A stretch of DNA of 64,000 nt, from the NCBI GenBank assembly GCA_041650835.1, contig JBAZKL010000003.1, positions 227,682 to 291,681 of the forward strand. Reading direction: 5' to 3'. The DNA is from Candidatus Omnitrophota bacterium (GTDB lineage: Bacteria > Omnitrophota > Gorgyraeia > Gygaellales > Profunditerraquicolaceae). The notes under the pieces were generated by a model. The model worked only from the letters and a program-made list of their open reading frames with translations. It had not been told where the DNA came from and made no database searches. The position numbers were made by a program, and so were the translations under genes. Shown piece after piece: positions 934 to 18,192 of the stretch. The stretch's first letter is position 1. The number at the start of each line of letters is the position of its first letter.

Positions 934-1833
934 TTACAATCCGTCGAATTTTAAATTCAGTTTATCGGCCAAAGCCCGCACTCCGGGGTCCTTCAAAAGT
1001 TCCGGGTCGGGTTTATATTCGGAATAGATGAGTTTTTGGGAATGGATGATCTTGATCAAAAGATGTTGTTCAATATAAGACAAAGGGACCAACTCGCTGT
1101 TTTTGATCTTTCTCAGCTGCCGGCTATACCAATTATAGACATACGGCCCGATTACCGAACACCGTTTATCGGAATACCGGACATCTTTTTTCCTGATAAC
1201 AACCTGCCGCCCTACCGTGGAAACAATATCAAGGTAATTACGGTACGCGGAAAGGAACGTATCAATGGCCATTTCAGGCCTCAACTCTTCAGGCCAAAAC
1301 TGATAATAGGGTTCATAGTTATCAAATATCATGGTACCGTTCTTTTTCAACAAGGGCCAGCAGCTCACCGCGTCCGCTAAGACATCATCGGCAGTATGCG
1401 AACCGTCGATATAAATGATATCGAAGGAATCCACCGGTAATTTGCGCGCTTCCAGATGAGAAAACCCTGTTATCAACTCTACCTTGCGCTCGTAACCGGA
1501 GACCCGGAGATTCTCTGCGCATCGCTCCTTTAGGTCTTTGGGAAAAATATCTATGCCGGTGGCACGAGCCGTATCATGGGTCAGGATATTTTCAAGCATC
1601 CATATGAGCGAACGCCCCTCGAACACCCCGATCTCAAGGTACCGCACTCCCTGTTTACCCTTATAAGAAGCTAATACGGTATCCCAATACTCCAGATGTT
1701 CCCGTTTGAAAGTATCGGTAAAGACATATGCGGGTTTAGTTGCCTGAGGAACGGCGGAAAAACTGCTTCCTCTATTAACCGTTACTATCAGCGCCATCAA
1801 AAGCAAACCGCGGAAAACCCCTGGACTTTTCAT
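934..1833 (-). CDS. class I SAM-dependent methyltransferase (TylF/MycF-like, Methyltransf_24-type) with N-terminal signal peptide
   Basis: 299-aa ORF; Rossmann motif LEIGVFEGRS and IIYIDGSHTADDV motif typical of the macrocin-O-MTase family; hydrophobic N-terminus. Confidence 0.6.
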   Translation of the reverse strand: MKSPGVFRGLLLMALIVTVNRGSSFSAVPQATKPAYVFTDTFKREHLEYWDTVLASYKGKQGVRYLEIGVFEGRSLIWMLENILTHDTARATGIDIFPKDLKERCAENLRVSGYERKVELITGFSHLEARKLPVDSFDIIYIDGSHTADDVLADAVSCWPLLKKNGTMIFDNYEPYYQFWPEELRPEMAIDTFLSAYRNYLDIVSTVGRQVVIRKKDVRYSDKRCSVIGPYVYNWYSRQLRKIKNSELVPLSYIEQHLLIKIIHSQKLIYSEYKPDPELLKDPGVRALADKLNLKFDGL

Positions 1834-1907
1834 CTTACCTCCTTAATGACAATAGTACTTCTCGCGCATCAACCAAAAACGCACCTCAGGACACCTGCGA
1901 AATCACC

Positions 1908-3545
1908 TTAAGGATACGGGATAATGGAACGCTCCCGCGAATCCCTGTTCGCTCCTGGCGAGCGCCCGGCTTCCTGTTTATTATCCCACAAGACCAGCTT
2001 CTCTTTCAGCATTGCGGCTACTTCAGGGTAGGCCGCTGCCACATCAGTCCGCTCGAAAGGGTCCTGCGTTAAATCATACAGCTCAATTTCCTTCCGGGAG
2101 ATATTTTTTCCGCTGATAAATCCCCACCAGGATATTTTTTCCTGAAGCGCGGGGTCTTTTCTCCAGAGTAATTTCCATCGGTTCGTCCGTATGGCGATAT
2201 CATACGGCGGATACCGGTACTCAGGAAAAGTGCCGAAATATTCTTTGAGCATTTCCGGGTAGTGCTTTTTACTTTCGATCTTCGTGAAAACCTGGGGCAT
2301 AGCGATCATCTGATACCATTCCAATAAATACCGGCTCAGAACGAATTCCCAAAGAGGTATCCGTGAGGTATAGGCGAATTCATTTATCTGCGAAACATCA
2401 GTATTTTTGATAAGTGCCGTCACACTGCGGCCCTGGAACGATTCATCAAGGGGGATCTGCAAATAATCCAGCAACGTCGGCACAATATCTATACCCTGCA
2501 CCTGATGAAAGATCCTTTTCCCCCTGAATTTATTCCCGGGGAATTTAATGAGCAGCGCATTCTTAACCTCGGTGTCATAGATATCGTAATGCTGAAAATA
2601 ACCGTGTTCTCCCAGGTCCTCCCCGTGAACGGAATGCAGTATGATCAGGGTTTTATCCATCAGATCTTGCTTTTCCAACACAGACAACAACCGCCCGATA
2701 AACATATCGGTATACCGGATACCAGCGTCATACCGGGCGATGATAAATGCCACGTCTTCTTTGGTGAGGCGGTGCGCCGGCGAGAAATCACAATAATACT
2801 CCCCCCGGTAAATCCGGGACAGGATACCGATACCCATATAATCTTTATTCGCGTTTGGAAACGCGCCATACTTTCTGAAAAAGGGAGAATACCGGGGGGG
2901 GTCGAAAACTTTGCGATCGGCTTCCGGAACCATCCAACTGTAAGGCCAATGCACCGACCCCAGAGGCAGCCACAAAAAGAATTTTTTCTCTTTGTTGCGC
3001 TTGATCCATCCCAACGCATCCCAGGGAATGTCCCCATTCTTCCGAGTCGGTTCATACACGTCAAAATGCTTCTCGAAAACGCTGCGCGCAGGTATTAAAG
3101 CCCCGGTCCGGGATAGTTTAACATTCTTATAGAACTCTATAGAGCTTAAGAACGCGGCATTATAATAATCATAATACTTCAGGATTTCCGGCAGCCGCCT
3201 TCCGGTCACGTCTGCTTCAGAAGATTCAAACTCGATCATACCGTTCGCGCGGGGGTATTGCGCGGTAAGGATACTCATCTGGCTGATCGGCGTCAGATTC
3301 GCCTGGGTAATAAAATTTTCAAAAAGCACCGCCCGCTTGGCAAGGCGGTCGATATGCGGGCTCGTCTTGCGCCGGTAACCATAACATCCCAAATGATCAT
3401 TTCTTAACGTATCGATCGATATTAATATTACATTGGTGTATTCATGGACGGGAGTATTCACCAGGGCAGGCTCACCGGCAGTGACAGCTGCGCAGCCGCA
3501 GATAAAAAAAGACACGATAACCAAAAGGATGCCTTTTGCCATCAT
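1908..3545 (-). CDS. sulfatase-like hydrolase/transferase (alkaline phosphatase superfamily, Thr-nucleophile type), lipoprotein
   Basis: 545 aa; N-terminal FICGC lipobox-like signal; SIDTLRNDHLGCYGY metal-binding motif; Thr (TPISQ) replaces the Cys/Ser-x-P-x-R formylglycine motif. Confidence 0.65.
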   Translation of the reverse strand: MMAKGILLVIVSFFICGCAAVTAGEPALVNTPVHEYTNVILISIDTLRNDHLGCYGYRRKTSPHIDRLAKRAVLFENFITQANLTPISQMSILTAQYPRANGMIEFESSEADVTGRRLPEILKYYDYYNAAFLSSIEFYKNVKLSRTGALIPARSVFEKHFDVYEPTRKNGDIPWDALGWIKRNKEKKFFLWLPLGSVHWPYSWMVPEADRKVFDPPRYSPFFRKYGAFPNANKDYMGIGILSRIYRGEYYCDFSPAHRLTKEDVAFIIARYDAGIRYTDMFIGRLLSVLEKQDLMDKTLIILHSVHGEDLGEHGYFQHYDIYDTEVKNALLIKFPGNKFRGKRIFHQVQGIDIVPTLLDYLQIPLDESFQGRSVTALIKNTDVSQINEFAYTSRIPLWEFVLSRYLLEWYQMIAMPQVFTKIESKKHYPEMLKEYFGTFPEYRYPPYDIAIRTNRWKLLWRKDPALQEKISWWGFISGKNISRKEIELYDLTQDPFERTDVAAAYPEVAAMLKEKLVLWDNKQEAGRSPGANRDSRERSIIPYP

Positions 3546-3568
3546 GAAAAATATTCTTTCCCTTTCTT

Positions 3569-5026
3569 TTACCGGGGAGCCTGTGAATCATAAACAGGAT
3601 AACATCCCGTTTCCCAGTTTCCCGACAAATCCCGGCCCATTGATTTAAAATAAGCAAAAAGCCGCTGCTCCAGCTCATAAGCCAGGCGCGCCTCTTTTTC
3701 CGCCAGGTTATTGCGTTCTCCGGGGTCATTTCTAAGGTTGTACAGCTCTTTTTCCCCGCTCTCAAGGGTATAAATGAACTTCCAGCCGTCTGAGGTCCTC
3801 AGAGCCCGCTTATAGGTATACCGGCGGTAATCAGTTTCGGAATAAACTTCCCGGGAAACAGTCCTTGCGCGCATAGCCTCAACCAGACTTATACCCCGCA
3901 GTTGGCTCCTGAGAACAGGCGATAGCTCTATTTGAAGCAGTTCCAGGATCGTAGGCATAATATCGATCGAACTAACTTGATCCCCTATTTGCCTCCCCCT
4001 GCCTCCTGCCGGCACCTTGATCAACAGCGGGACATGAATGAGCTCTTCATATAAACTAAACCCGTGATCGAACCTTTGATGCTCGTATACTTCGGTGCCG
4101 TGGTCTGAGGTGACGCAAAGAATGGTATTACGCATCAGGCCGAGATCATCAACCTCCCGCAGGAACTCCCCCAATTTCCGGTCAAGCCGATTGATCTTTT
4201 CATCATAAACGGCTCTCCAGAAATCGACATCCTCCTGCCTCAACTCTACTTTACCGTTCGTAAGCCCTTCCTCTCTCAAAGCTTCTTGCTCCTTCTTGGA
4301 TCCCGTATAAGTGCCATCGTATCCCCGGGACACATATCGATAATCAAAACCTTCCGAAGGTTCACATTGGCCATGGACATCATATCCATGCAGAAAAAGA
4401 AAAAACTTTTTATCCTTATTGTCTTTAAGCCACTGCAACGCTTTCGGGACGGTATATTCCATTGAGCCGAATTTAACGTCATCAACATACCTGTCAAAAC
4501 CACGGTTGAATCCAAAAATACCGCTGACTCCCGCGCCCCCGGTAAAAGCGGCGGTAGCATACCCCTGCTCTTTGAGGATTTCGGCAAGCGTTATCAAATT
4601 CGGAGATAATTCTTTCAGCCGGGAGGGTATCTGACGGGGAGGATCGTAAAAACTGAATTTATTGACGACTTTGTGTTGTGACGGAAGAACGCCCGTGAAC
4701 CACGACATCGAAGCGGGAACCGTCCATGAGGAAACAGAAACGGCATTGGTAAAATTGTAATTTTCCCGCATCAGGCGGTCGATAACCGGAGTAACATCCT
4801 TCGGGTACCCCAACGCGTGCACGTGGCCGGCCTGTAACGCGTCAAGGCTGACCATGATCACGTTCGCCCCTTTGAAGCGCGCGTTCAATTCCGGGGGCTC
4901 TTCGATTTTTACCTTTGAGCGTATTTGCCCGTGTGTCGAACACCCCAAAATAAAACTACAGGTAATTACTATCCCCGCCTTCAAGGACTGGATAATCTCC
5001 GCCGATAAAGAATATTTATTATTCAT
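3569..5026 (-). CDS. sulfatase-like hydrolase/transferase (alkaline phosphatase superfamily, Thr-nucleophile type), lipoprotein
   Basis: 485 aa; ILGCS lipobox-like signal; MVSLDALQAGH motif; TVPAS in place of CxPxR; paralogous to the upstream gene. Confidence 0.65.
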   Translation of the reverse strand: MNNKYSLSAEIIQSLKAGIVITCSFILGCSTHGQIRSKVKIEEPPELNARFKGANVIMVSLDALQAGHVHALGYPKDVTPVIDRLMRENYNFTNAVSVSSWTVPASMSWFTGVLPSQHKVVNKFSFYDPPRQIPSRLKELSPNLITLAEILKEQGYATAAFTGGAGVSGIFGFNRGFDRYVDDVKFGSMEYTVPKALQWLKDNKDKKFFLFLHGYDVHGQCEPSEGFDYRYVSRGYDGTYTGSKKEQEALREEGLTNGKVELRQEDVDFWRAVYDEKINRLDRKLGEFLREVDDLGLMRNTILCVTSDHGTEVYEHQRFDHGFSLYEELIHVPLLIKVPAGGRGRQIGDQVSSIDIMPTILELLQIELSPVLRSQLRGISLVEAMRARTVSREVYSETDYRRYTYKRALRTSDGWKFIYTLESGEKELYNLRNDPGERNNLAEKEARLAYELEQRLFAYFKSMGRDLSGNWETGCYPVYDSQAPR

Positions 5027-5073
5027 TTTAAAAAGCAGTGTATCATCGCCTTATGTCGCTGTAAAGCAGATTC

Positions 5074-6240
5074 TCACCTGTTTTTCCAATATGGACGGAT
5101 ATCCTCAATCCCCAAAAGTTCCCTCATACCGCCGCAGGCTATCTGGCATAATTCGATCGAAAACGCGGTCAACGCCTCCAGGGCGACTATAGCGTCCTTT
5201 GTCACCGCAACATCCCATCCCAGGTATGGGAAATCAACGGTTTTTTCCGCCGCCGCCAAAACAAACTCCTTTATTTTCCGCCACTCAGCTACGGTGAAGC
5301 CCGTAAAAATAAAGCCGGTATCCGGATGCGCCCGGAAATATCCGCATGTTAAAGACCGGGCCTGCTCAGCAACCGCCCCGGTTTCTAAATCGACCCTGAC
5401 AAAAATACCTCCCTGCCCGGCATTATCAACCTGCTCCCCCCCGCGCCCCATGCGTAAGAGCGCGCAAACAATACGGACATCCCCGCCCTTATTTTCCGTA
5501 ACGATACGCAGCGTATTGACCGAATGCGGATATATTTTTGAAAAAGCCTCAACCTGATCCAGTCCGGGCTGTATGATATAATCGTTATTGGCCGCTATTT
5601 TCTGAAGCAGGCTTTCCCCCCATGATTCGTTATTCTTACTGACATACCTGCCGCAGGCGGTCTTATTTAAAATGTATATTCCGCGCGCGCAATGTTCCTG
5701 CCGCGGTTTAATGAATATTTTCCGGAACTTTCCTTCGGCAACAGCCTGGTTTACCGCGGCAAAGCTCGTCGGTTTAAGCTCATTGGTGTAAAGCCGCCTG
5801 TTTATTAATTTACATAAGGTCACCGGTTGCGCGATCCCTAAGCTCCTGAAATACTGCTCTTCGATAAGTTTATCGTTAACCAGGACATCTTTTTTCGCTG
5901 AATTATGATACTCCCAGAACAATACCAGGAAGAAATAATGGGGGATATAATTGATAAGCTGCCCTTCTGAAAGCTTCTGATCGGCCCGATAGAGGTCGTA
6001 TAACAGATAATGCGTAGGATGACACCCCCAATATTTTTTACACAGGGACATTTCTTTTTTGATCTGAGAGAGCGGTTTCTTTTCGCTGCATTCTTTGTAA
6101 CGGCAAAACGCCGCGCGATAGACCGGGCGCAGCAGCGGTAATTGCCTCTCAAAGAGCTTCTCCTGCAACTTTAAACCCCAGGGAGTCCTCCTGAGCCTTG
6201 TGACAAACGATTCTATCCGATAGGCATGTTCAAAAGACAT
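5074..6240 (-). CDS. ATP-grasp domain protein (sugar-transfer-associated ATP-grasp type)
   Basis: 388 aa; family-level resemblance to PF14397-like alpha-L-glutamate-ligase-related ATP-grasp proteins (recognised from sequence, no HMM run). Confidence 0.5.
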   Translation of the reverse strand: MSFEHAYRIESFVTRLRRTPWGLKLQEKLFERQLPLLRPVYRAAFCRYKECSEKKPLSQIKKEMSLCKKYWGCHPTHYLLYDLYRADQKLSEGQLINYIPHYFFLVLFWEYHNSAKKDVLVNDKLIEEQYFRSLGIAQPVTLCKLINRRLYTNELKPTSFAAVNQAVAEGKFRKIFIKPRQEHCARGIYILNKTACGRYVSKNNESWGESLLQKIAANNDYIIQPGLDQVEAFSKIYPHSVNTLRIVTENKGGDVRIVCALLRMGRGGEQVDNAGQGGIFVRVDLETGAVAEQARSLTCGYFRAHPDTGFIFTGFTVAEWRKIKEFVLAAAEKTVDFPYLGWDVAVTKDAIVALEALTAFSIELCQIACGGMRELLGIEDIRPYWKNR

Positions 6241-6257
6241 ATGAATTCTCCATGTTC

Positions 6258-7949
6258 CTATTTATGGCAACAATAGGGGCCTACGCATAACACTTCGATC
6301 GGTGAATTCTTGAATACCGCAAGAGCATCATCGGGAGAATCAACGATCGGTTTCCCCCTTAAATTAAACGAAGTATTTAATACCATCGGGACCCCCGAGA
6401 TCTTATCAAATTCGGAAATAAGATGATAGAAGAGCGGATTTGCCTGCCGCTCTACAGACTGTGGCCTGGCAGTGCCGTCCTTATGGACACAAGCGGGGAC
6501 CTCATCTTGTTTGGTTTCTCTAAATTCATTCGTGTATAACATAAAAGGCGACCGCCATGGTTCTTTGAAATAATCATGGAACCTTTCCGCTAAGACCGCC
6601 GGGGCAAAAGGCCTGAACCACTCCCGGTGTTTTATATGCGCATTGATATGTTCCCGCATGGAATTCTCGCAAGGCGAAGCTAAAAGGCTTCTATTACCCA
6701 ATGCCCGCGGCCCCATCTCGGCGCGCCCCTGGAACCATGCGACAACTTTGCCTTCGGCCAGATAAGCCGCAGCCGTTTTTCCCACATCAGGGCAGTACTG
6801 AAAATTAAAATCGTGTTTACGTAAACTCTGCTCGATTTCATCGGCGTAGAACTCTCTTCCAAGATACGGATTAACAAAATCCTTACGCGGCGTATTTAAT
6901 CCGGTATTTTGAACATGCCACAAAAAACCCGCCCCAAAGGCAGTTCCCACATCATTCATCGCGGGCTGCACATAGATATTCTTAAAAAGCCCTGATTTCC
7001 GGATCACGCTGTTGAGCGAGCAATTAAGGAAGACACCTCCCGCCAAACACAAATTATCGCCACCAACCGCTTTTTTAAGCCAATCGAGCATCAACAAAAT
7101 ATTCTTTTCAAGCGTTACCTGGGCTGCTGCCGCGATTTGACAATGACGCGTTTCAAGCTTACCTCCTGCAACACGCGGCATTCCGAACTCACGTTCAAAT
7201 TTATTTGACCAGCGTTTGCTTCTCTGGTCATAAAAGGTGAAATAACGCATATCCAGCTGCAGCAAACCATTCTTATCGGCCTTTATGAATTTATCAAACC
7301 GGGGGCAATATTCTTTATCCCCATAAGCTGCCAATGCCATAACTGTCCCTTCGCCTGCATGAGGGGTAAAACCGAGATATTCGGTGATCGTGGTATAGAA
7401 TTTCCCCAGTGACGCCGGATAGTGTATCTCCTTGATCTTGCGCAAAGATGCTCCTTGCGCGTGCGCGTAGAGGACAGTAGCGCTCTCTCCGTTGCCGTCA
7501 GCGGTCAATATCGCCGCGCCTTCGAAAGGCGAAAGGAAATATGAACTTGCGGCATGACAGAGATGATGCTCAAAGAATTTGACGCGGGGCCAAATAAGCT
7601 TCAGGCACGAAGGGAAACACTTCTCAAAGTTCTTTTGGAGCCTGCGATAGAAAGAACAATAATAGACCGTCCGCCAAAAAAGCTTTCTCGCAAGGTGAGG
7701 CGAAGCCCAGTATTTCAACGAATCCAGACAAAAGACTTTGACCGGGTCATGGTTAACCGCGACAATATCGATATCCTTGATCGTGATGCCGGAAAAACGC
7801 AAGCACTCTCCGATAGCCAACTCCGGAAAGAAACACCTGTTCTTTACCTTGCGCAGACGATCCTCCTCAAAACAAGCGATAAGCTCACCGTCTTTAAGAA
7901 GCGCGGCCGCGGAATTAACATGATCTGTCGCTATCCCCAGCACATACAT
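6258..7949 (-). CDS. carbamoyltransferase (NodU/CmcH family)
   Basis: 563 aa; N-terminus MYVLGIATDHVNSAAALLKDGELIA...EEDRLRKVKN is typical of Carbam_trans_N; length matches family. Confidence 0.75.
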   Translation of the reverse strand: MYVLGIATDHVNSAAALLKDGELIACFEEDRLRKVKNRCFFPELAIGECLRFSGITIKDIDIVAVNHDPVKVFCLDSLKYWASPHLARKLFWRTVYYCSFYRRLQKNFEKCFPSCLKLIWPRVKFFEHHLCHAASSYFLSPFEGAAILTADGNGESATVLYAHAQGASLRKIKEIHYPASLGKFYTTITEYLGFTPHAGEGTVMALAAYGDKEYCPRFDKFIKADKNGLLQLDMRYFTFYDQRSKRWSNKFEREFGMPRVAGGKLETRHCQIAAAAQVTLEKNILLMLDWLKKAVGGDNLCLAGGVFLNCSLNSVIRKSGLFKNIYVQPAMNDVGTAFGAGFLWHVQNTGLNTPRKDFVNPYLGREFYADEIEQSLRKHDFNFQYCPDVGKTAAAYLAEGKVVAWFQGRAEMGPRALGNRSLLASPCENSMREHINAHIKHREWFRPFAPAVLAERFHDYFKEPWRSPFMLYTNEFRETKQDEVPACVHKDGTARPQSVERQANPLFYHLISEFDKISGVPMVLNTSFNLRGKPIVDSPDDALAVFKNSPIEVLCVGPYCCHK

Positions 7950-7979
7950 TGTATACCTTTCCTCTCCTCAACGAAAAAA

Positions 7980-9170
7980 TTATTCCGCCCCCGCCTCACT
8001 CGATATGCTTTTGTTAAGAACACTTCTTACTATCGTAAAGAAACGCACACAATGCGGCAGGCAGTCATCCAGCGATATTTCGCAGGAGGCCTTATGCAGC
8101 CCCCTGAATGCCTGAAGCTTATTTGGCGCCCTCAAAAGATAGAATAGTTCATCATATAATATCCAACGGAATTCCTTTCCTTCCGGAAAATCAGGCCCCG
8201 GGTTCACCGGCTCATCCAAAGCCTTCTGGAAGAGCATGCCGGGAAAATCGATGCCGGATGCGATCGCGAATTCTATAGTGCTCCAGAATCTTGGATTAGC
8301 ATCGATCAACTTAAGGGTATTATCCCTGCGATCATGTATATACTGGATATCGACAATACCATTCCAGCCCAGGGGGCGCAGCAAAGACAGGGAAATATCT
8401 TGAAGCGCGCCGTGCTTAATTGACCGCGCCGCGATACTATGTCCAAACGGCAGAGGGTAACTGCGTATTGTTTTCGTCGTAAAAAAAGCCTTGAGCGCGG
8501 AATGATCGAAATAGCCGTAAAAATTAAGCACTTCCCCGTCGATATATTCCTGGATAAGCGGCCTGCGGGTATCGAAGAAAACTTCAGGCGCGGACGAAAT
8601 TCTTTGCTCCGCATTTGACAAGCGGCCATAGAGCGCGCAGAGCTCCGAGGGAGAAGCAGCACAACGGATACCGAGGCCGCCCCACGACAAGCGAGGCTTA
8701 AGAAGCACCGGATATTTGAGTTTCCCGGCGATACTCCTTACTTCCAAAGCGTTCTCCGGGAAAAAAGTATCCGGCACCGGGATTTTATTTTCCCGGGCCC
8801 GCAAAAACAAAGTTCCCTTATCTTGAAGCTCGGCAAACGCAGTCCGGCTCGGCAATGGTATCAGCCGGGTATACTCCCGGTACTGATCCTGATATTTCAG
8901 GATCACGCTGAATGTCCGGTCAAACAACGGCATCAGCACATCAGGCTTGAATCTTTTAACAGCGGACAGTATGGCCGCGTGCATCTTTTCGCCGTTTTCA
9001 TCAACGGGGTAGAGAAAATGAGCGGCGCAATATCTTGAGAAAAACGCCTGCGACAAACGAGAATACCCTCCGGCGAAAACTTTCACCCCGCGGGCGCCGA
9101 AGCTCCGGGTAAGAGCGAGTGCGGCGCGATTGTCCGCGTCTAAGATCATAACGCTTAGTGGATGATTCAC
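7980..9170 (-). CDS. ATP-grasp carboxylate-amine ligase
   Basis: 396 aa; N-terminal pre-ATP-grasp region MILDADNRAALALTRSFGARGVKVF and ATP-grasp core. Confidence 0.55.
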   Translation of the reverse strand: MNHPLSVMILDADNRAALALTRSFGARGVKVFAGGYSRLSQAFFSRYCAAHFLYPVDENGEKMHAAILSAVKRFKPDVLMPLFDRTFSVILKYQDQYREYTRLIPLPSRTAFAELQDKGTLFLRARENKIPVPDTFFPENALEVRSIAGKLKYPVLLKPRLSWGGLGIRCAASPSELCALYGRLSNAEQRISSAPEVFFDTRRPLIQEYIDGEVLNFYGYFDHSALKAFFTTKTIRSYPLPFGHSIAARSIKHGALQDISLSLLRPLGWNGIVDIQYIHDRRDNTLKLIDANPRFWSTIEFAIASGIDFPGMLFQKALDEPVNPGPDFPEGKEFRWILYDELFYLLRAPNKLQAFRGLHKASCEISLDDCLPHCVRFFTIVRSVLNKSISSEAGAE

Positions 9171-9204
9171 TGTTTCCGCCTTTGCAAAAAGGTACCGAAA
9201 AAAA

Positions 9205-10287: not shown

Positions 10288-11759
10288 TCGTGTAAAACAC
10301 TCCGCGGGAAACCGCGCGCTTTGAGGTGTTTTTTCCAGGAGCGCCCCAGGCCGATCAATCTGAAATAGTCAAAACGCTGCTGCAGCTTCTCCCTTAAAAC
10401 AATGGAAAACCTCCTCAAAGACCTTGTTTTTCCCAAAAAAGACACCAAAAGGAACAAAGATTCTAAATATATATGTATCCTGCCGAAGTATTTTTTTCGC
10501 ATAACGGCATAAACCGGATATATGAGCTTCTTAAGCCAGAATAGTTCGGAAATAATCCCTTTATCTTTGGCTTCCCGGTAGAGGACTGTGCCGGGGAAAA
10601 TGATCAAAGGCGTAATTTTGAAATAATAAGGATTTAATTCGTTTAAAGCGCGGGCTGTTTCTAATACGGCACGGTATCCCTGCCCGGGCCATCCCACAAT
10701 TACATTGGCCCTGGTCATGATACCCAAACGCTTAGCCTCATACACCATATCACGGGCTTTGTCAAAAAGAAAACGGCGATTGACGGCTTGCAAAACCCCG
10801 GGAGCGCCCGACTCAAGGCCGAATATGATATGAGATACTCCCGCTTCTTTCATTTTCCTTAAAAGGCCCTTGTCCAGAAGATCAATCCGCGCGTCAATGT
10901 AGAAGCGAAAGTTAAAATCTTCACGACTGACCAAATCAAACAATTCATGGCTATGCTTCAAATCAGCGGTTAAACAATCGTCATTAAAAACAATCTCGTG
11001 CGGATTAAATGTATTTTTCAAATAACGAAGTTCCGCAACAATATTTTGTGCCGAGCGCCTCCTCCAGCGGGCCCCGAAAAAATCAGCTGCCGAGCAAAAC
11101 GAACAAGAATACATGCAGCCCCGAGAGGCAAGGACATTAAAACGCCTCACCGCGCCGCCGATCGCAGCGATATCATCATAACAGGGAAAAGGGAGGCTAT
11201 CCAAATCGCTGATACATTCCCTGAGCGGTCCTTCGGATACTCTGCCTCGGGGATCCCTTCCTGAAACGCCGGCGATCTCTCGCGGGCAGCCCGCCGTTGA
11301 CAAATGGTCTAAAAGCCGCCTGAAGCTCTCCTCCCCTTCACCGCGCACGATATAATCGATAAACGGGTATTCTTTCAGGATTTGTTCACGAAGATACGTG
11401 GCATGTTGGCCGCCAAGAACCACCAGAATCTTTGGATCATACATTTTTACGGCCTCAGCCATGGCAAAAGAAGAAAAACGGTAACCGGTCAAACAGGGAA
11501 TTCCCACGACATCGGGGCGGATCTCTTCAATAAACCCGAGAAGCTCCATTTGGCCTGATCGAGAGAGCCGCCGGATAAATGTCCCGGGATAATCATGCCG
11601 CTTCAGATACGCCTGAAGGTACATGAGCCCCAAAGGAAAGAAACCCTGCGCCCGTAATTCTCCCGGCGGTTCAATCAAAAGTATCTTCATTGATACCAGT
11701 CCCCTTGTCTTTACGAAAAATAAATTTACCCGTGTTTTACTGATCAGTAACGAGTACAA
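10284..11759 (-). CDS. B12-binding domain radical SAM protein (putative C-methyltransferase)
   Basis: 491 aa; N-terminal cobalamin-binding-like domain (MKILLIEPPG...GLMYLQAYL), CxxxCxxC cluster CMYSCSFC. Confidence 0.75.
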   Translation of the reverse strand: MYSLLISKTRVNLFFVKTRGLVSMKILLIEPPGELRAQGFFPLGLMYLQAYLKRHDYPGTFIRRLSRSGQMELLGFIEEIRPDVVGIPCLTGYRFSSFAMAEAVKMYDPKILVVLGGQHATYLREQILKEYPFIDYIVRGEGEESFRRLLDHLSTAGCPREIAGVSGRDPRGRVSEGPLRECISDLDSLPFPCYDDIAAIGGAVRRFNVLASRGCMYSCSFCSAADFFGARWRRRSAQNIVAELRYLKNTFNPHEIVFNDDCLTADLKHSHELFDLVSREDFNFRFYIDARIDLLDKGLLRKMKEAGVSHIIFGLESGAPGVLQAVNRRFLFDKARDMVYEAKRLGIMTRANVIVGWPGQGYRAVLETARALNELNPYYFKITPLIIFPGTVLYREAKDKGIISELFWLKKLIYPVYAVMRKKYFGRIHIYLESLFLLVSFLGKTRSLRRFSIVLREKLQQRFDYFRLIGLGRSWKKHLKARGFPRSVLHE

Positions 11760-11871
11760 CGCGCCTCGATGCCCTTACCATTAACTCTTGTCCGGGAACT
11801 ATCGGCTATTGGCTCCCGGCATCTTGCGCTCAGGCTCTACCGTCCCCCCTCTACCATCCAATCGATCGAGC

Positions 11872-13239
11872 CTATGTAAAATCGCACCGCAGATAACTAT
11901 CCCGGATATATTTCAACGCCGAGTGAACCCTCACCCACGAAAGCATGGAGAATCTCCTCCAAGACCTTGTCTTGCAGAGAAAAAACAGCATCAAGAAATA
12001 ACTTTCAAGCATTAAAATAACCGCTCCCCACAAACCGCTTTCCATGATGCCATACACAGGATAAACCGGTTTTTTAAGCCAAAACTCTTCCCTAATAATC
12101 CCCTTTTTTTTAGATTCCTCATAAAGGGCTGAACCGGGAAGTATAACTAAAAGGTATGTTCTGAAATAATAGGGGTTTAGTTCACATAACTGGCGGGCCG
12201 TTTCTATAAGAGACTGCCAATCTCTCTGCGGCCAGCCGACGATAACATTAGCGCACGTCATAATACCGAGTCGAGCGGTTTCCTTGAGCGCCGACTTTGA
12301 TTCCGCGGAAGGAAGATTGCGATTCACCTTTTTTAATATACGAGCGCTGCCGGATTCAAGGCCAAACGCCAAATGGACCACCCCCGCCGCTTTCATCAAC
12401 CGCAAAAGTTTCTTATCCAAGAAATTATAGTGGGTTTGAACTTCAAACTCGAAACCGAAATCTTCACAGGCTATAGCTTCAAACAATTCGCAGCTATGGC
12501 GCATATTTGCCGTCAGCAAATCATCGTTAAACGTGATCCGTTTTACCTTAAAATTCTGCTTCAAATAGCTTAGCTCCGCGACAACACTTTTCACGGACCG
12601 GAACCTTCTTTGATAGCCATAGAAGGCGGTCGCGGAACAAAAAGTGCAGTGAAACAAACATCCTCGAGAAGTCAGGATACTGAAGCGCGGCAAAAACCCT
12701 CTCCGAAGGCAGATATCGTCATAACAGGGGAACGGCAGGCGATCCAAATCCACGATAGATCCTCTCACCGGCCCATCAAGGAACTGGCCGCGATGATCCC
12801 GTAACGAGATGCCGGGGATAGCCTCAAAAACATTTTTTTCCAAGCGTATATGATCGAGAAGCTCTTTTAAACTGACCTCGCCTTCCCCTTTAACGACATA
12901 ATCAACAAATGGATACGCGCCAAGAATTTGTTGCCGGAGGTAGGTCGCATGATGCCCTCCCAGAATAACCCGTATTCGCGGATTATATGCCTTAGCCTCC
13001 CGGGCCAGCGCAAGTGTCAGGAATCGAGAACCTGACAAGCAGGGGATACCCAAAACATCGGGGTCAAGTGTTTTGAGAAGCTTAAGGAATTCTTTTCTTT
13101 TTATATTATTTACCCATCTTAAAGAAGTCAACGGATAACCGTTTTGTTTAAGATACGACTGGAGATACATTAATCCTAACGGCAGGTAGGATTTTGTTGC
13201 GCCGGCAGTACCATGAGGATCTAATAATAAGATTTTCAT
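11872..13239 (-). CDS. B12-binding domain radical SAM protein (paralog of upstream gene)
   Basis: 455 aa; MKILLLDPHG...GLMYLQSYL, CxxxCxxC cluster CLFHCTFC; clear paralogy with 10284-11759. Confidence 0.75.
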   Translation of the reverse strand: MKILLLDPHGTAGATKSYLPLGLMYLQSYLKQNGYPLTSLRWVNNIKRKEFLKLLKTLDPDVLGIPCLSGSRFLTLALAREAKAYNPRIRVILGGHHATYLRQQILGAYPFVDYVVKGEGEVSLKELLDHIRLEKNVFEAIPGISLRDHRGQFLDGPVRGSIVDLDRLPFPCYDDICLRRGFLPRFSILTSRGCLFHCTFCSATAFYGYQRRFRSVKSVVAELSYLKQNFKVKRITFNDDLLTANMRHSCELFEAIACEDFGFEFEVQTHYNFLDKKLLRLMKAAGVVHLAFGLESGSARILKKVNRNLPSAESKSALKETARLGIMTCANVIVGWPQRDWQSLIETARQLCELNPYYFRTYLLVILPGSALYEESKKKGIIREEFWLKKPVYPVYGIMESGLWGAVILMLESYFLMLFFLCKTRSWRRFSMLSWVRVHSALKYIRDSYLRCDFT

Positions 13240-13336
13240 TCGGGATAATTGCGACTTTTATTAAAGAAATATCATCTGATAAACAAGACATACTGCCGAT
13301 AACGACAGTATACACAAACAGCGACGGTGAAGTATC

Positions 13337-14128
13337 CTACTTTTTCCGGGCATTAAAGATCAGGAACCAGGCAGTGATATAATGAACTTTTGTTTTACCC
13401 AGGCTGTACCGGTTGAGCCGGCCGATCAGTATCCTGCACAATCCTTTAAGACCTATTTTATTCAAAAATTTGATAGTGCCGTTAAAAAACGGCGGAATAT
13501 GGACTATGGGTTCATGTGATTGCACACAAAATCCCGCCTCCTCCAGAAAACTGCTCAAACCGGCTGCCGTATAGCGGCTACTCACCGGAAACGGGATCTT
13601 GCGGATAAAAAATGAAATTTGGCACAATAATTTAAATAAAAGGTTGTGCCGGTTATTGACCGAAATAACTAAAATACCTCCCGGTTTGAGAATTCTATAC
13701 GCTTCTTTCAGCCCCCTGCGAATATCACGGCTGCTTAAGTAACCGTAGGTATTGGAAGAAACAACCAGGTCAAATACCGAATTTTTAAAAGGCGTATCGG
13801 CCACATCGCACGAAACCCAGGAAATCGCCGGAGAGCAAAATCTTTCTTTTGCTTGAGCTGCAATTTGCGGAGATATATCCACGCCGACAGTACTGCGGCT
13901 ATGCGCCCCTAACCAATCTATGATATGATCCGCGCCAAAAGCCTCTTCAAAAGCATCTGTTTTGAGAACGCGGTCAAAAAAGCCTCCTCCCCACTGTTCC
14001 AGGAGACGGAAAAATTCCCCTTGCTTATATCGGCCAAGGCCGGGATCAATGTAATAAGCTCTCCGGCGCATCATTGCCTGACACACGCTGTCCCAGAATT
14101 GCGATCCTCTTTTCCCGGAACCCCTCAT
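13337..14128 (-). CDS. class I SAM-dependent methyltransferase
   Basis: 263 aa; motif LKPGGILVISV and glycine-rich SAM loop. Confidence 0.6.
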   Translation of the reverse strand: MRGSGKRGSQFWDSVCQAMMRRRAYYIDPGLGRYKQGEFFRLLEQWGGGFFDRVLKTDAFEEAFGADHIIDWLGAHSRSTVGVDISPQIAAQAKERFCSPAISWVSCDVADTPFKNSVFDLVVSSNTYGYLSSRDIRRGLKEAYRILKPGGILVISVNNRHNLLFKLLCQISFFIRKIPFPVSSRYTAAGLSSFLEEAGFCVQSHEPIVHIPPFFNGTIKFLNKIGLKGLCRILIGRLNRYSLGKTKVHYITAWFLIFNARKK

Positions 14129-14190
14129 ATATAACCCTTTATTGTATTAATAATACGGCAGATAATACACGGCCCACGGATGGCCATGAA

Positions 14191-15135
14191 CTATTGACCG
14201 TGAGTTGCCGGCCGGACATTAACACACTGATGATATTGATTTTGATGCATCTGCTTCCAGAGGCGGGAGAACGAAAGCTCCAGGAGATTCCCGCTTTTAT
14301 GATGAATGAACGGACAGGGATAAAGATCTCCGTAAGGACTGATATAAACCTTCTCCGTTCCCGCCGGACAAATACCTTTGCGGTAACAGGTTTCAGTATC
14401 CATGGTAATGAATTTTTTCTTAAGCCATTGCTTTACTAACGAATAATCTTTTTGGTCGAGCATTACAGGATCATGCCTCCACCCGCCGACTTGCGCCGGG
14501 AGCACAAGCGACAAGAAACAAGCATTCTCAGACGCTATTTGAGCCAGATCTTTCAATCTGCGCGAATTCAATACTTCTTTTGTCACAACCACATTCAGAA
14601 GGACTTCTATATTAAGACCCTTAGCCCGGCGAATACGCGACAAGAGCGTATCAAAACTGCCTTCGATGCCGGTTTCACGATCGTGTTCTGCGGCGGAGGA
14701 GCTGGAAATCCCGAATTGAATAACATCAAGGCCTGCATGCTTCAACCGCTCAAAAAGCGCGTCATCCAGGAGCAGTCCGTTGGTAGCAAGAGAAACAATT
14801 ACCGGCATCCTGCTTAAATCTGCCACAATATCCGCTATATCCGCCCTTAATAAAGGTTCGCCGCCGGTCACATTAATAAAAATACACCCCAACCCCACCA
14901 TCTCCCGGCAAACCGCAATAATAGATCCCCGTGTCATCTCCTGCCGGCGCCCGTCAACCAATGTCCGGCAGGAGCACTTGCTGCAGTGCGCCTGACAACG
15001 ATATGTCACTGCTATTTCCGCCCCGCGCAGGACCTTCTTGCCGAAAACATTGGTTTTGATCATCCCTTTTATCGCGGGGAACGCGATCGCGGGCTTTCGA
15101 GAGGCAAGTGCGATATATTTCAACATCCGTTCCAT
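14191..15135 (-). CDS. radical SAM / SPASM-domain protein
   Basis: 314 aa; CQAHCSKC (CxxxCxxC) near N-terminus; C-terminal Cys-rich CYRKGICPAG...YPCPF segment typical of SPASM/twitch auxiliary cluster. Confidence 0.7.
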   Translation of the reverse strand: MERMLKYIALASRKPAIAFPAIKGMIKTNVFGKKVLRGAEIAVTYRCQAHCSKCSCRTLVDGRRQEMTRGSIIAVCREMVGLGCIFINVTGGEPLLRADIADIVADLSRMPVIVSLATNGLLLDDALFERLKHAGLDVIQFGISSSSAAEHDRETGIEGSFDTLLSRIRRAKGLNIEVLLNVVVTKEVLNSRRLKDLAQIASENACFLSLVLPAQVGGWRHDPVMLDQKDYSLVKQWLKKKFITMDTETCYRKGICPAGTEKVYISPYGDLYPCPFIHHKSGNLLELSFSRLWKQMHQNQYHQCVNVRPATHGQ

Positions 15136-15136
15136 T

Positions 15137-15820
15137 TCAATTCTTTTTGAGGACCAGGAAAATAGTTAACAAAGCTATATTCCCGTTTTCAAGTATATTA
15201 AATCCGTTAAAAAGCCGCGCGAGCCCTTTAAGGTTAAAGACGCTCACATGGCCGCAGTGATATTTATAGTATTCATCCTTATCTTTCCACCACTTGAATC
15301 TGCACCATAAAGGAAAAATGAACTGCCAGAGCCCCGGGAGCTTCCCGTAGGGGACAGAAACTATCAAAATCCCGTCTTTTTTAAGGACACGAAACACTTC
15401 ATTAATAATACAAGCATGGGATTCCAGGTGCTCTAATATTTCGGTCATGACCACAATGTCTATACTCGCGTCCTTCAAAGGCACCGAGTTGAACACGTCG
15501 GCATTAACCGGGAAGAAGTGTTTAACATGGTCTTTATTATAGCACAACATCGATTCGCAGATATCAATACCGATCACCGGTACTTCACCGGTGTTCCACA
15601 GGCAATTACCGCACCCAATATCAAGGACGAGACCTCCCGGGCGGTAATATTTTTTAACTAACCTTCGCGTCTTAAGTTGTCTTTGTTTAAACCATGCGCC
15701 TCTTAAACCGCCGCGGGACATTTGTTGAAGGTAATAGGTTGCCGGCTGGACAGAATACATTGATTTATGCATACGCTTTTTAGAATTCAAACAAATCGAC
15801 GGTGATACCGTCAATTTCAA
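15137..15820 (-). CDS. class I SAM-dependent methyltransferase
   Basis: 227 aa; VLDIGCGNC SAM-binding motif. Confidence 0.65.
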   Translation of the reverse strand: MKLTVSPSICLNSKKRMHKSMYSVQPATYYLQQMSRGGLRGAWFKQRQLKTRRLVKKYYRPGGLVLDIGCGNCLWNTGEVPVIGIDICESMLCYNKDHVKHFFPVNADVFNSVPLKDASIDIVVMTEILEHLESHACIINEVFRVLKKDGILIVSVPYGKLPGLWQFIFPLWCRFKWWKDKDEYYKYHCGHVSVFNLKGLARLFNGFNILENGNIALLTIFLVLKKN

Positions 15821-17363
15821 AAGTCTTTATTTTCCGACAACACCGCGACATAAAGGACCTCACCAAAAAAGCATTAGCGGTATGCTCCACAGCCTGCCCT
15901 CGGTACCAGGTAGTAGTCACCAGCCAATACCGGGATATCCCCTCTCTTTTATTACCCTCCAACCAACCCTCACTCAGCACCTGCATACTCGCTTCTTTAG
16001 AAAATTTGGCGGCGATACGAGATTCAAAAAAATTCTTGGCCATAAATTCAGGCACACAAACCAACTTATGCGTCATTTCATCTTTTGACGCTCCCCTATT
16101 ATTATTAACAAAAAAACTATAGTACTGGAACGGCAAGGGAAAATCCCTGTTTGAGAAAAGAATACACTCATGCCTCTGATAATGGCCGGTTAGAAATCTG
16201 ACGGCAGCCTGGTAAGGATGCTTAAAGGGGACTCCCACATGCATGCGGCTCCAGAATTCACCCGCCCGGAGACATCGCTCTTCATTGGTATCAGTATAAT
16301 AGAAGATAGCCGCGGCAATTAACGGCAGAAAAAGCGCCGCAAAAAGGGCCTTCTTCAAAAACAGGTTCTTTAAACTATTCAACGACAGTATTAATCCCAC
16401 ATAGAAAAACGGAGAAATAAAAGCAAAAAACCTGTCAACATAGATCGAAACGGATAATTTTGAAAAAACGAAACCGAAAACAACAGGCAGGAAAACAAGG
16501 GACTTGATCATTCCCATACGCGGGCCATGAGCCAGCCCAAGTATTATCAGTAAAACCGCGGTCAAGCTTAAACTTATGGAATTAAAAAAGGGGAGCCGGT
16601 TATAGCCGAATAACATATTGTTAAAAGTGATCAGCGGGCTTATCCACAGCGGAACGGGCGCCCAAAAGGAAATCTGTTTAAAAAAATCAGCCTGCGCCAT
16701 AAAAACACGCAGGCATAATACCAGGCTCACCAGCAATGCCGCCATGCAGAAAAACGCCAGCCTTTTATCAAGGCTCCGAAAATGCAGGACAACAAAAAAC
16801 AACAGAAAAAACCCAAGCCTATAATCAGTACAGACGGATAGGACTAAGACAAAAAAACAAGAATAGGCGTATCGTATGCGAGGAGCGGCCACATAACGCG
16901 TAAACACATACCAAAACAAAATTGCTTCAAAAATAATAAACGAGTAACTGCGCGCCTCCTGGGAATACCATATCTGAAACGGTGAAAGTATAAAGATCAG
17001 GGAAACCAGCCACGCGGCTTTCCTGTTTCCCACCATAGCAACCAGCCGAAACAAAGGATAAAGAGAAGCCGCGCTAAAAAACGCTGAAGGAAGGCGTAAG
17101 GAAAAAAGGCTGTTCCCAAAAAACGATGTCCAATTTTTAAGGAACCAGGGATATATAAACGGGTTAAAATCGAAAATTTGAGCGTTTTTGAAAAAACCTA
17201 TCGCCCCAAAGAAAGAATAGGCTTCATCATACCAGATATCATGAAAACTCAAACGAAACATCCTGGTACCCAAAGTGATAAGTGTCAAAATAAGAATAGC
17301 GATCTTATCATTCTGGATAAACAGAAGAAGCCTCTTGATTCGCAGGGAAAAAGAACCTTCCAT
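15780..17363 (-). CDS. ArnT/PMT-like membrane glycosyltransferase (GT39/GT83 family)
   Basis: 527 aa polytopic membrane protein; N-proximal DIWYDEAYSF (DE motif loop) characteristic of polyprenyl-phosphate-sugar dependent GT-C enzymes; AAGGAG SD before ATG. Confidence 0.6.
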   Translation of the reverse strand: MEGSFSLRIKRLLLFIQNDKIAILILTLITLGTRMFRLSFHDIWYDEAYSFFGAIGFFKNAQIFDFNPFIYPWFLKNWTSFFGNSLFSLRLPSAFFSAASLYPLFRLVAMVGNRKAAWLVSLIFILSPFQIWYSQEARSYSFIIFEAILFWYVFTRYVAAPRIRYAYSCFFVLVLSVCTDYRLGFFLLFFVVLHFRSLDKRLAFFCMAALLVSLVLCLRVFMAQADFFKQISFWAPVPLWISPLITFNNMLFGYNRLPFFNSISLSLTAVLLIILGLAHGPRMGMIKSLVFLPVVFGFVFSKLSVSIYVDRFFAFISPFFYVGLILSLNSLKNLFLKKALFAALFLPLIAAAIFYYTDTNEERCLRAGEFWSRMHVGVPFKHPYQAAVRFLTGHYQRHECILFSNRDFPLPFQYYSFFVNNNRGASKDEMTHKLVCVPEFMAKNFFESRIAAKFSKEASMQVLSEGWLEGNKREGISRYWLVTTTWYRGQAVEHTANAFLVRSFMSRCCRKIKTFEIDGITVDLFEF

Positions 17364-17582
17364 ATAATGCGCGCTCCTTAAGCTTTTGGGCCAGAGAAAC
17401 CGGGCATGACTTACAGCAGGATCGTTTGCATAGCGCTTACTAAATCATATTATTATAACACATCGGAAAGACAAAAATAAGCTTAAACAAGATCGGGATT
17501 ATCGAAGAGCCATTAAGAAACAAAAGAAGATATAACCGGAGAATACATCAAGATGTTAATACTGAACTGTGAGGAATGGATC

Positions 17583-17690
17583 ACACTACCTTTGGTTTCC
17601 GACAGTAAATAAAAAAAGGAATAATCATAAAACGACTATCCCTTTCTTTTTAAAACTATTCAACTAAACACGGCTCTGGCTCGTTCATGA
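17583..17690. repeat. ~105-bp direct repeat copy A (CACACTACC...AACACGGCTCTGGCTCG)
   Basis: About 93% identical to 18088-18192; a shorter third copy of the 5' portion lies at 17806-17832. Confidence 0.8.
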
Positions 17691-18087: not shown

Positions 18088-18192
18088 TCACACTACCCCT
18101 CGTTTCCAACATAAATAAAAAAAGGAATAATCATAAAACGACTATCCCTTTCTTTTTAAAACTATTCAACTAAACACGGCTCTGGCTCGTCA
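18088..18192. repeat. ~105-bp direct repeat copy B
   Basis: Near-identical to 17583-17690. Confidence 0.8.

Follow-up and report, generated by a model that had tools for sequence, protein, structure and literature searches.

A mosaic radical SAM gene cluster near the replication origin of an Omnitrophota bacterium that may tailor an envelope sugar

What is the product of a compact cluster that joins three radical S-adenosylmethionine (SAM) enzymes with ligases, a carbamoyltransferase and several exported proteins? The question is raised by a stretch of 64,000 nucleotides from the metagenome-assembled genome of a Candidatus Omnitrophota bacterium (GenBank assembly GCA_041650835.1, contig JBAZKL010000003.1, positions 227,682 to 291,681 of the forward strand), called here the window, in which 13 minus-strand open reading frames (ORFs) lie back to back and span exactly positions 934-17363. 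A first-pass annotation had described this gene set, as the ORF listing bears out, and had proposed that it builds a decorated, carrier-lipid-linked glycan for an envelope acceptor. The reading held here, with moderate confidence, is that of a chromosomal, lineage-specific mosaic locus tailoring a sugar of an envelope glycan or glycoconjugate, which would be attached on the periplasmic face. This reading is favored because a glycan context recurs around homologs, because families linked to sugars (ATPgrasp_ST, TobZ-type carbamoyltransferase and GT-C glycosyltransferase) are present, and because the products are split between cytoplasmic enzymes and exported proteins. Families and folds, the division between cytoplasmic and exported products, the conservation of parts of the locus, and the neighborhoods of homologs are established by the analysis; substrates and the order of steps are deduced from them.

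Profile searches with Pfam upheld the earlier family assignments for nearly every gene (Table 1). The ATP-grasp protein g4 matches ATPgrasp_ST, a family associated with sugar transfer according to Pfam's own description, with 142.7 bits against a cut-off of 31.4. The carbamoyltransferase assignment of g5 is secure at the level of type: the Kae1-like N-terminal and YrdC-like C-terminal domains are both present over the full length (Carbam_trans_N, PF02543, 197 bits; Carbam_trans_C, PF16861, 228 bits), and residues 7-561 align with the PDB sequences of GdmN, TobZ, and NovN at E ~1e-82, which makes it a full-length O-carbamoyltransferase of the TobZ/GdmN/NovN type; the NodU equivalog is not reached (176 bits against 1000). 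The membrane glycosyltransferase g13 is only marginally above the cut-off of PMT_2 (PF13231; 28.9 against 26.1 bits). Its AlphaFold2 (AF2) model (pLDDT 83) has ArnT as the top Foldseek match (5ezm and 5f15, TM-score 0.55-0.58), followed by STT3, PglB, ALG9/12, DPY19, and PMT, and an Asp-Glu pair, D46-E47, in the first periplasmic loop just after the first transmembrane helix is invariant among 66 homologs, as are R90, E136, and R138. The predicted ArnT/PMT-like enzyme is thus a GT-C protein. Donors of this enzyme family are polyprenyl-phosphate sugars, which are used on the periplasmic face.

The cluster extends beyond the left edge of the window, where two more genes follow g1 on the same strand, so that it comprises at least 15 genes. 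The split over these 15 is nine cytoplasmic enzymes, one polytopic GT-C protein and five exported proteins, namely the lipoproteins g2 and g3, a 348-amino-acid (aa) sulfatase-fold protein, g1, and the giant propeller g0. The enzymes listed in the title of the first-pass annotation add up to 14 for 13 genes, and the excess concerns methyltransferases: four were claimed, and Pfam gives three (g1, g10, and g12 carry Methyltransf domains). The sequence itself is reproduced in other assemblies. Identical protein sequences occur on the ENA contig ERZ27247363 k141_2542458 (370 kb), and an independent Logan assembly (SRR8542065) is 100% identical across 17,635 nucleotides (nt).

Table 1. Features of the cluster and its edges in the window (coordinates count from the first nucleotide of the window).
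Feature	Description	Coordinates	Strand	Basis
g13	GT39/GT83-like GT-C glycosyltransferase resembling ArnT; opens the cluster	15780..17363	-	PMT_2
g12	Class I SAM methyltransferase, part of the methyltransferase-radical SAM-methyltransferase module	15137..15820	-	Methyltransf_11 + _31
g11	Radical SAM enzyme with short SPASM/twitch-type C-terminal domain	14191..15135	-	Radical_SAM + SPASM
g10	Class I SAM methyltransferase, weakly NodS-like	13337..14128	-	Methyltransf_11
g9	Presumed C-methyltransferase of the class B (B12-binding) radical SAM type	11872..13239	-	B12-binding + Radical_SAM
g8	B12-binding radical SAM enzyme, paralog of g9	10284..11690 (ORF open to TTG 11759)	-	B12-binding + Radical_SAM
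g7	Tandem-GNAT protein with Fem-like fold	9205..10287	-	Weak Acetyltransf_6, AF2/Foldseek
g6	ATP-grasp ligase (CPSase-like/PylC-like)	7980..9170	-	CPSase_L_D2 + ATPgrasp_Ter
g5	O-carbamoyltransferase of TobZ/NodU/CmcH type	6258..7949	-	Carbam_trans_N + Carbam_trans_C
g4	"Sugar-transfer associated" ATP-grasp protein	5074..6240	-	ATPgrasp_ST
g3	Sulfatase-fold lipoprotein, alkaline-phosphatase superfamily, Thr-type	3569..5026	-	Sulfatase
g2	Second sulfatase-fold lipoprotein, Thr-type	1908..3545	-	Sulfatase
g1	Methyltransf_24 protein with signal-peptide-like N-terminus	934..1833	-	Methyltransf_24
g0, 5′ part	1215-aa secreted PQQ_2/BamB-like beta-propeller	1..848, continues outside the window	-	
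Upstream non-coding region	Presumed promoter site	17364..18282	-	Repeats, copy of tRNA-Asp 3′-end, ORFs of at most 39 aa

Support also comes from the surroundings of homologs, which hold GT2 and GT4 glycosyltransferases, Wzx, DegT aminotransferase, Wza/Wzz, EpsI, and CapK-like genes and so agree with the glycan-type substrate proposed earlier. As for the expectation that the genes travel together in related genomes, sub-modules are co-localized in other Omnitrophota, but the complete set was found nowhere else. A profile scan of genome contigs with g8 and g9 returned four loci only, none with the full set, and a corresponding g5 scan of metagenomes returned at least 80 loci with g5 homologs (34-42% identity), none of which shares any other cluster gene; the source contig and L018, a locus described below, are not among the matches listed in that scan.

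Two sub-modules can be distinguished. Module A is found in L018, an Omnitrophota metagenome contig (JGI 3300037810 Ga0376277_0000608), with the order g13, g6, g5, g0 kept (39, 42, 50, and 29% identity, respectively). The propeller there has 1180 aa, aligns with g0 over 634 aa and lies directly downstream of the carbamoyltransferase gene; the g6 ortholog adjoins this carbamoyltransferase gene and a gene for an ELFV amino-acid dehydrogenase, and the g13 ortholog holds the same position. The module is interleaved in L018 with genes for a GT2, a radical SAM protein, an NAD-dependent sugar epimerase/dehydratase, the ELFV enzyme, and a CapK-like enzyme. Module B is found in L012 as a tandem pair of B12-binding radical SAM genes (47% identity) followed by g12-like (45%), g11-like (51%), and g10-like (44%) genes, directly after a Wzx flippase gene and near genes for GT4, GT2, CysD/CysN, a Thr-type sulfatase-fold protein, and a polyketide synthase (PKS). 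A second copy in L100 consists of g12-like (48%), g11-like (49%), and g7-like (39%) genes and a partial g10-like gene (38%) at the contig end, and is preceded by a gene for a soluble 531-aa protein that, from its sequence, resembles adenylate-forming enzymes of CapK type. Neither L012 nor L100 has g5, g6, or g0 beside its module B, and module B is missing from L018. In the window, the outermost genes of the cluster, g13 and g0, both belong to module A, which covers the full length of the cluster and has module B as an insert. Construction of the locus by module exchange, like that of variable surface-glycan cassettes, is therefore the favored account of its origin.

Further relatives lie in similar company. 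Relatives of g8 and g9 occur in L013/L014 (41% identity) among three GT2 genes, Wzx, and a PMT_2 gene, and in a Planctomycetales metagenome-assembled genome (L015; 36%) with GT2, a DegT sugar aminotransferase, an ATP-grasp protein, three radical SAM genes, and an alginate-export porin. Glycan genes are present in each of the four loci where g8/g9 relatives reach at least 36% identity, the one in the window being the GT-C gene. Closer relatives of g7 reside in radical SAM-rich clusters that also hold GT2 (L007 and L008/L009), and distant ones in classic exopolysaccharide (EPS) loci with Wza, Wzz, Wzx, EpsI, FemAB-like genes, and a Wzt ABC transporter, where sampled members of the family adjoin FemAB-like, ATP-grasp, and CapK-like genes.

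Some of these loci are unusual in their own right. L008/L009 (Omnitrophica WOR_2 SM23_72; 431-18804) has about 11 radical SAM genes in 18 kb, an extraordinary density; three of them encode B12-binding domains, and the locus also holds DUF2284, GNAT, and RidA genes and the g7 homolog, with GT2 and sugar epimerase genes at its flank. L007 and L012 are homologous loci of Omnitrophota type that share TauE, CysD/CysN for sulfate activation, a 670-aa phosphodiesterase-fold protein, GT2, radical SAM-SPASM proteins, a B12-binding radical SAM protein, methyltransferases, a GNAT-like protein, and a type I PKS of about 1830-1850 aa, L012 also having Wzx; their product may be a sulfated, acylated glycolipid.

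The tandem-GNAT protein g7 had been called FemAB-like, an assignment that its fold sustains. The Pfam match to Acetyltransf_6 (PF13480) is 21.7 bits, just below the cut-off of 22. The AF2 model (pLDDT 92) has a tandem-GNAT fold, and its best Foldseek matches are aminoacyl-tRNA-dependent transferases and their kin: FemX, aminoacyl-phosphatidylglycerol synthases/MprF, and Sbb17/Sba18, at E ~1e-9 and probability 1.0, with TM-scores of only 0.36-0.43. On this modeled fold, g7 possibly uses aminoacyl-tRNA. An exhaustive search gave 2114 representative relatives (clustered at 50% identity), 272 of them with E <1e-30; these are tandem-GNAT proteins of 360-420 aa for which there is no curated Pfam or NCBIfam model. 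Among 76 sampled relatives, PF13480 was matched by 16 and PF02388 by three (E up to 0.01), and the names given to cluster members say little: they read "hypothetical protein", apart from one fusion named "monoamine oxidase". A separate family definition may be warranted. Searches of PDB sequences with g7, g13, and the propeller gave no useful match, so that comparison of folds was required.

Of the exported proteins, g2 and g3 (27% identical) match the Sulfatase family with 117 and 141 bits, respectively. At the site of the C/S-x-P-x-R motif of S1 sulfatases, g3 has T-V-P-A-S and g2 has T-P-I-S-Q, so that Thr occupies the formylglycine position and the Arg of the motif is lost; the sulfatase-fold homolog in L012 is likewise of Thr-type without this Arg. 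The N-terminal segment of g3 ends in a lipobox, ILGC. The two proteins are thus Thr-type sulfatase-like lipoproteins, as had been noticed at first. The metal motif SDHG is kept in g3 and in the L012 homolog; in g2 it is SVHG, with one metal-binding Asp replaced, and g2 is further distinguished from g3 by about 60 aa inserted in its C-terminal part. On these sequence features, g2 may be catalytically altered or inactive. For the EptA/LtaS/MdoB-type role suggested earlier, the Thr nucleophile speaks in favor, but both proteins lack a polytopic membrane domain and have a lipoprotein signal only, soluble S1 sulfatases match their sequences best, and their NCBIfam scores are negligible (EptA, 40 bits against 561; LtaS, 32 bits against 970); such a role is weakly supported. 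The propeller gene g0 and the gene for the 348-aa secreted protein, whose sulfatase fold is weakly matched, overlap (L003, 10986-14633 and 14620-15666). The Methyltransf_24 match of g1 has 75.9 bits; its N-terminus is MKSPGVFRGLLLMALIVTVNRGSSFSA, followed by V, which appears to be a cleavable Sec signal peptide with the cut between …SSFSA and VPQ. Either this segment serves as a membrane anchor, or the g1 domain has another role.

The radical SAM part of the cluster consists of the pair g8/g9 and of g11 between two methyltransferases. The description of g8 and g9 as tandem paralogs with B12-binding and Radical_SAM domains was confirmed: they are 51% identical and score 63-65 bits on PF02310 and 63-72 bits on PF04055. 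The most likely start of g8 is ATG 11690 (468 aa), since it aligns with the N-terminus of g9, has the ribosome-binding sequence AAGGGGA ahead and is the same start as in public gene calls. The CxxxCxxC motif of g9 (C194/C198/C201) is invariant among the homologs aligned, and its matches among PDB sequences are the class B methylases TokK (52 bits), OxsB (39), and CysS (32). Only four homologs above 40% identity were found in 5.8e9 proteins searched, and both proteins lie far below the cut-offs of all curated class B subfamilies in NCBIfam (ApyD, HpnR, HpnJ, BchE, PhpK, KedN5, and others). In g8, g9, and close homologs, the C-terminus has a conserved hydrophobic segment, predicted as a helix, and then TRSWRR, which suggests from sequence a membrane association and a lipid-linked substrate. 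In g11, the Radical_SAM domain (PF04055, 72 bits) is followed by a SPASM match (PF13186, 25.1 bits against 21.5); this C-terminal domain has four Cys only and is therefore twitch-like rather than a full 7-Cys SPASM domain. Matches of g11 among PDB sequences are PqqE, the sugar decarboxylase BlsE, and MoaA. A function of g11 as an anaerobic sulfatase-maturating partner of g2 and g3 was ruled out, as the sulfatase-fold proteins have no C/S-x-P-x-R motif. The methyltransferase g10 scores 63 bits on Methyltransf_11 and 25 bits on NodS; the start of g12 is uncertain, one public gene call giving 211 aa.

Taken together, these enzymes can be arranged in a tentative pathway. The substrate on the cytoplasmic side would probably be a uronic or amino sugar, which may by then be linked to polyprenyl-phosphate as its carrier. 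There, g8 and g9 would C-methylate the sugar, at the membrane as their C-terminal helix suggests, g11 would alter it by oxidation, epimerization, or decarboxylation, and g10 and g12 would perform O- or N-methylation. O-carbamoylation by g5 would proceed through carbamoyl-AMP, as in TobZ. The ATP-grasp proteins g4 and g6 would add amino-acid substituents by forming an amide to a carboxylate or amine, and so would g7, possibly from aminoacyl-tRNA. After flipping, g13 would move the decorated sugar from polyprenyl-phosphate to an acceptor, which may be a glycan, lipid A/lipopolysaccharide, or a protein, and the five exported proteins would have the product as substrate or partner outside the cytoplasm. 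Genes for the donor synthase, the flippase, and backbone glycosyltransferases would have to lie elsewhere in the genome. Precedents exist for the key reactions. Sugars are C-methylated by the B12-dependent radical SAM enzyme MoeK5 in moenomycin biosynthesis and O-carbamoylated by TobZ, NodU, and MoeM5. B12-dependent radical SAM methylation of sugar carbons is also known from gentamicin biosynthesis, where it is carried out by GenK and GenD1 (PMC4340712, PMC4039129).

Several observations weigh against tailoring of an envelope sugar. First, in the cluster and its flanks, Pfam detects no GT-A/B glycosyltransferase, priming phosphoglycosyltransferase, Wzx/Wzy, ABC exporter, polymerase, or nucleotide-sugar genes, nor a GT2 donor synthase for g13, unlike the loci L018, L019, and L013, in which a GT2 gene adjoins the g13 homolog. 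The cluster is therefore not self-sufficient, and the earlier statement that it "builds" a glycan has to give way to one in which it tailors and transfers only. Second, none of the 13 proteins reaches the cut-off of a curated NCBIfam equivalog, so that every substrate assignment is inferred. Third, the best characterized relatives of g5, g8/g9, and g11 are enzymes of small-molecule antibiotic pathways, and the type I PKS in L007 and L012 leaves a lipid or glycolipid substrate possible for module B. Fourth, it is not obvious how an exported SAM-dependent methyltransferase such as g1 would obtain its cofactor beyond the cytoplasm. Finally, the cluster is only a presumed operon, as co-direction and tight spacing are the rule across the window.

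The third of these points leads to the alternative that survives best, though it is still unlikely: rather than change the envelope, the cluster may make a small molecule that diffuses away or is anchored in the membrane, for example a glycoside resembling aminoglycosides, nucleosides, or moenomycin. The close match of g5 to antibiotic carbamoyltransferases and the likeness of g9 to TokK, OxsB, and CysS and of g11 to BlsE would fit such a product, as would the PKS of the related loci. Moenomycin biosynthesis joins a B12-dependent radical SAM sugar C-methylase, a carbamoyltransferase, and formation of a uronic-acid amide. However, the cluster contains no scaffold enzyme (2-deoxy-scyllo-inosose synthase, non-ribosomal peptide synthetase, PKS, prenyltransferase, or GT-A/B) and no exporter, resistance gene, or regulator. 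In addition, the GT-C enzyme and the five exported or lipoprotein components point to periplasmic envelope chemistry, and homologous modules adjoin Wzx and EPS genes.

A second alternative, also judged unlikely, is that two or three unrelated operons merely lie side by side: g13 to g8 with the radical SAM enzymes and methyltransferases, g7 to g4 with the ligases and the carbamoyltransferase, and the exported proteins from g3 to the 348-aa gene. The arrangement of the window gives this view some weight. The genes from 934 to 57902 share the minus strand without exception, and replication from oriC makes this the leading strand. Short gaps are common throughout the genome, with medians of 32 bp within the cluster and 61 bp outside it. 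Since co-direction and compactness are common to the whole window, they are alone no proof of an operon. The operon claim of the first-pass annotation was thus sound as to tight packing, but not as to its gap limit: gaps of at most 115 bp were claimed, and the largest is 181 bp (between g9 and g8) once g8 starts at ATG 11690. This gap and the next largest, of 97 bp, are both within the radical SAM part, and a hairpin is found in the g10-g9 gap. Modules A and B also recur apart, as described above for L018 and for L012 and L100. On the other hand, four gene junctions of the cluster overlap or are at most 23 bp apart, and module A extends over the whole cluster with its order kept in L018, as module exchange within one locus would give.

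It is improbable, in the third place, that the cluster modifies membrane lipids, with the radical SAM enzymes methylating or cross-linking alkyl chains or hopanoid-like lipids and the alkaline-phosphatase-superfamily proteins remodeling head groups. This possibility is suggested by the scores of g8 and g9 on lipid-related models (HpnJ, 135-144 bits; HpnR, 102-108; ladderane-type lipid radical SAM enzyme, 98-104), by the conservation of their hydrophobic C-terminal helix, by the PKS beside module B in L007 and L012, and by the match of the g7 fold to aminoacyl-phosphatidylglycerol synthases. The scores are, however, far under the respective cut-offs of 360-650 bits, the cluster has no acyltransferase, ketosynthase, squalene-hopene cyclase, or PlsA-like gene, and ATPgrasp_ST, the TobZ-type carbamoyltransferase, and GT-C are sugar-linked families.

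Maturation of a ribosomal peptide by the three radical SAM enzymes, ATP-grasp proteins, and methyltransferases is very improbable: the top NCBIfam matches of g8 and g9 are enzymes of such pathways, in which ATP-grasp proteins and methyltransferases are also known, but the cut-offs are missed by far (ApyD, 176 and 197 bits against 750; rSAM_ocin_1, 113 and 132 bits against 282), homologs sit in glycan loci, Pfam finds no RRE/PqqD domain, leader peptidase, or ABC exporter in the cluster, and no credible precursor is encoded in the 919-bp upstream region or the 181-bp g9-g8 gap, where only unconserved ORFs of 20-39 aa occur in repeat DNA. The resemblance to such clusters raised by the first-pass annotation is therefore not supported as a reading, and its own remark that no precursor ORF lies in the gaps agrees with the small-ORF scan. 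A 40-aa ORF between the radical SAM genes of L012 was considered as a precursor and rejected, as it overlaps a gene end and looks spurious.

The locus read here as probably tailoring an envelope sugar is chromosomal. It lies about 40 kb from dnaA/oriC on the leading strand, amid housekeeping genes: to its left, after the two additional genes, are TPR, YggT, DUF502, and other housekeeping genes, and upstream are tRNA-Asp, a 23S_rRNA_IVP gene, tRNA-Val, a V-type ATPase operon, and pyrimidine-synthesis genes. The origin region of the window contains gyrA (49994-52426), gyrB (52488-55010), dnaN (55314-56408), and dnaA (56568-57902) on the minus strand and yidC (58825-60357), parA (60604-61455), and parB (61436-62302) on the plus strand, and the sign of the GC skew switches at about 45-58 kb. 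The cluster had been described as an island beside att-like repeats. The duplication at tRNA-Asp indeed exists, as an 18-nt exact copy of its 3′-end (17877-17894 and 18282-18299), but this pair brackets 405 bp only; no further copy was found in the rest of the window, the whole cluster included, or in the 10 kb beyond g1, and Pfam finds no integrase in the cluster or its flanks. A comparison of composition likewise gave no foreign signature: the GC content is 0.472 in the cluster and 0.482 outside, and the codon-usage divergence of 0.018 is only mildly raised over that of comparable blocks (0.006-0.013). A mobile or integrated island is ruled out by these results. In the spacer at 17581-18300, a stretch of 79 nt is also repeated perfectly in direct orientation (17606-17684 and 18112-18190), and three copies of a 36-nt repeat are present; the repeats of the spacer look like what is left of a small integration/excision event or a duplication. 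For the same strain, the Logan assembly has its break among these repeats, some 270 bp upstream of g13. Control of the cluster by a cobalamin or SAM riboswitch was rejected after an Rfam scan of the whole window, which gave four tRNAs only.

Three other observations in the window stand apart from the cluster. The region at 58-61.5 kb is AT-rich (GC 0.36-0.39), the yidC and parA genes having GC contents of 0.36-0.37; it is probably the oriC region plus these AT-rich genes rather than a foreign island. The 23S_rRNA_IVP gene (18386-18748; 120 aa, four-helix bundle) lies between tRNA-Val and tRNA-Asp, away from rRNA operons. A single ORF of 2796 aa occupies 38117-46507 on the minus strand, and very long proteins of this kind have been reported for Omnitrophota (bioRxiv 10.64898/2026.06.07.730766).

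The locus and its relatives suggest that envelope glycans of Omnitrophota are tailored by radical SAM enzymes. Members of this phylum are uncultured, mostly ultra-small, and thought to be attached to or to live at the expense of other cells, and because of this supposed way of life their surface chemistry is central to their biology. To our knowledge, B12-dependent C-methylation and twitch-type radical SAM reactions on sugars have been documented only in antibiotic pathways, and neither this Omnitrophota cluster nor the presence of B12-binding radical SAM enzymes in loci for envelope polysaccharides was found described in a literature search. A bolder proposal, which must be rated as speculative and unlikely to hold as a whole, is that Omnitrophota have an undescribed type of surface-glycan decoration by radical SAM enzymes, in which the B12-binding pair would install C-methyl groups and the trio of g10, g11, and g12 would perform further chemistry, and in which the GT-C, ATP-grasp, carbamoyltransferase, and propeller quartet would be a protein glycosylation system that transfers a carbamoylated, amino-acid-bearing sugar onto the propeller or has the propeller as a periplasmic partner. 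If true, this decoration would shape what the hosts of these ultra-small, attached bacteria meet at the bacterial cell surface. Targets for enzymology are the trio and the quartet, which are the most promising leads, and the g7 family, which has more than 2000 representatives but lacks a curated model. Until the product is identified, the findings are of modest practical value.

Comparison with known systems places the locus among them without making it a copy of any. It resembles ArnT and other GT-C (GT83/GT39) systems in the fold of g13, for which ArnT is the closest structure, and in the Asp-Glu pair of the first periplasmic loop, but g13 and ArnT are only about 11% identical in sequence and the cluster is without partners of the arnBCADTEF type (GT2 donor synthase, formyltransferase/decarboxylase, aminotransferase, and flippase). 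With Fem- and MprF-type transferases, its top structural matches, g7 shares the tandem-GNAT fold, but it has neither the flippase domain of MprF nor the coiled-coil insertion of FemA, and the low TM-scores given above set it apart. EptA, LtaS, and OpgB (MdoB) are like g2 and g3 in the position of the Thr nucleophile and in extracytoplasmic location; they differ in the N-terminal polytopic domain, which the two lipoproteins, closest to soluble S1 sulfatases, do not have, and g2 moreover is without one metal-binding Asp. The pathways of gentamicin (GenK, GenD1, and GenN), tobramycin (TobZ), and moenomycin (MoeK5, MoeM5, and amidotransferases) show the same mix of C-methylation, N/O-methylation, O-carbamoylation, and amide formation on a sugar. 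There is, however, no orthology to them, g9 scoring at most about 52 bits on solved class B enzymes, and the cluster has no genes for an aminocyclitol or phosphoglycerate-lipid scaffold but an envelope-directed context and exported proteins. Wzx/Wzy- or ABC-dependent polysaccharide loci for O-antigen, capsule, or EPS are the remaining comparison. The cluster differs from them in having no assembly or export genes and in its unusual load of three radical SAM enzymes, but loci of this kind (L010, L011, L012, L013, and L015) hold relatives of g7, g8/g9, and g11, and the same mosaic pattern of module swapping is found in both. The cluster is accordingly rated as an unusual variant of a surface-glycan tailoring locus.

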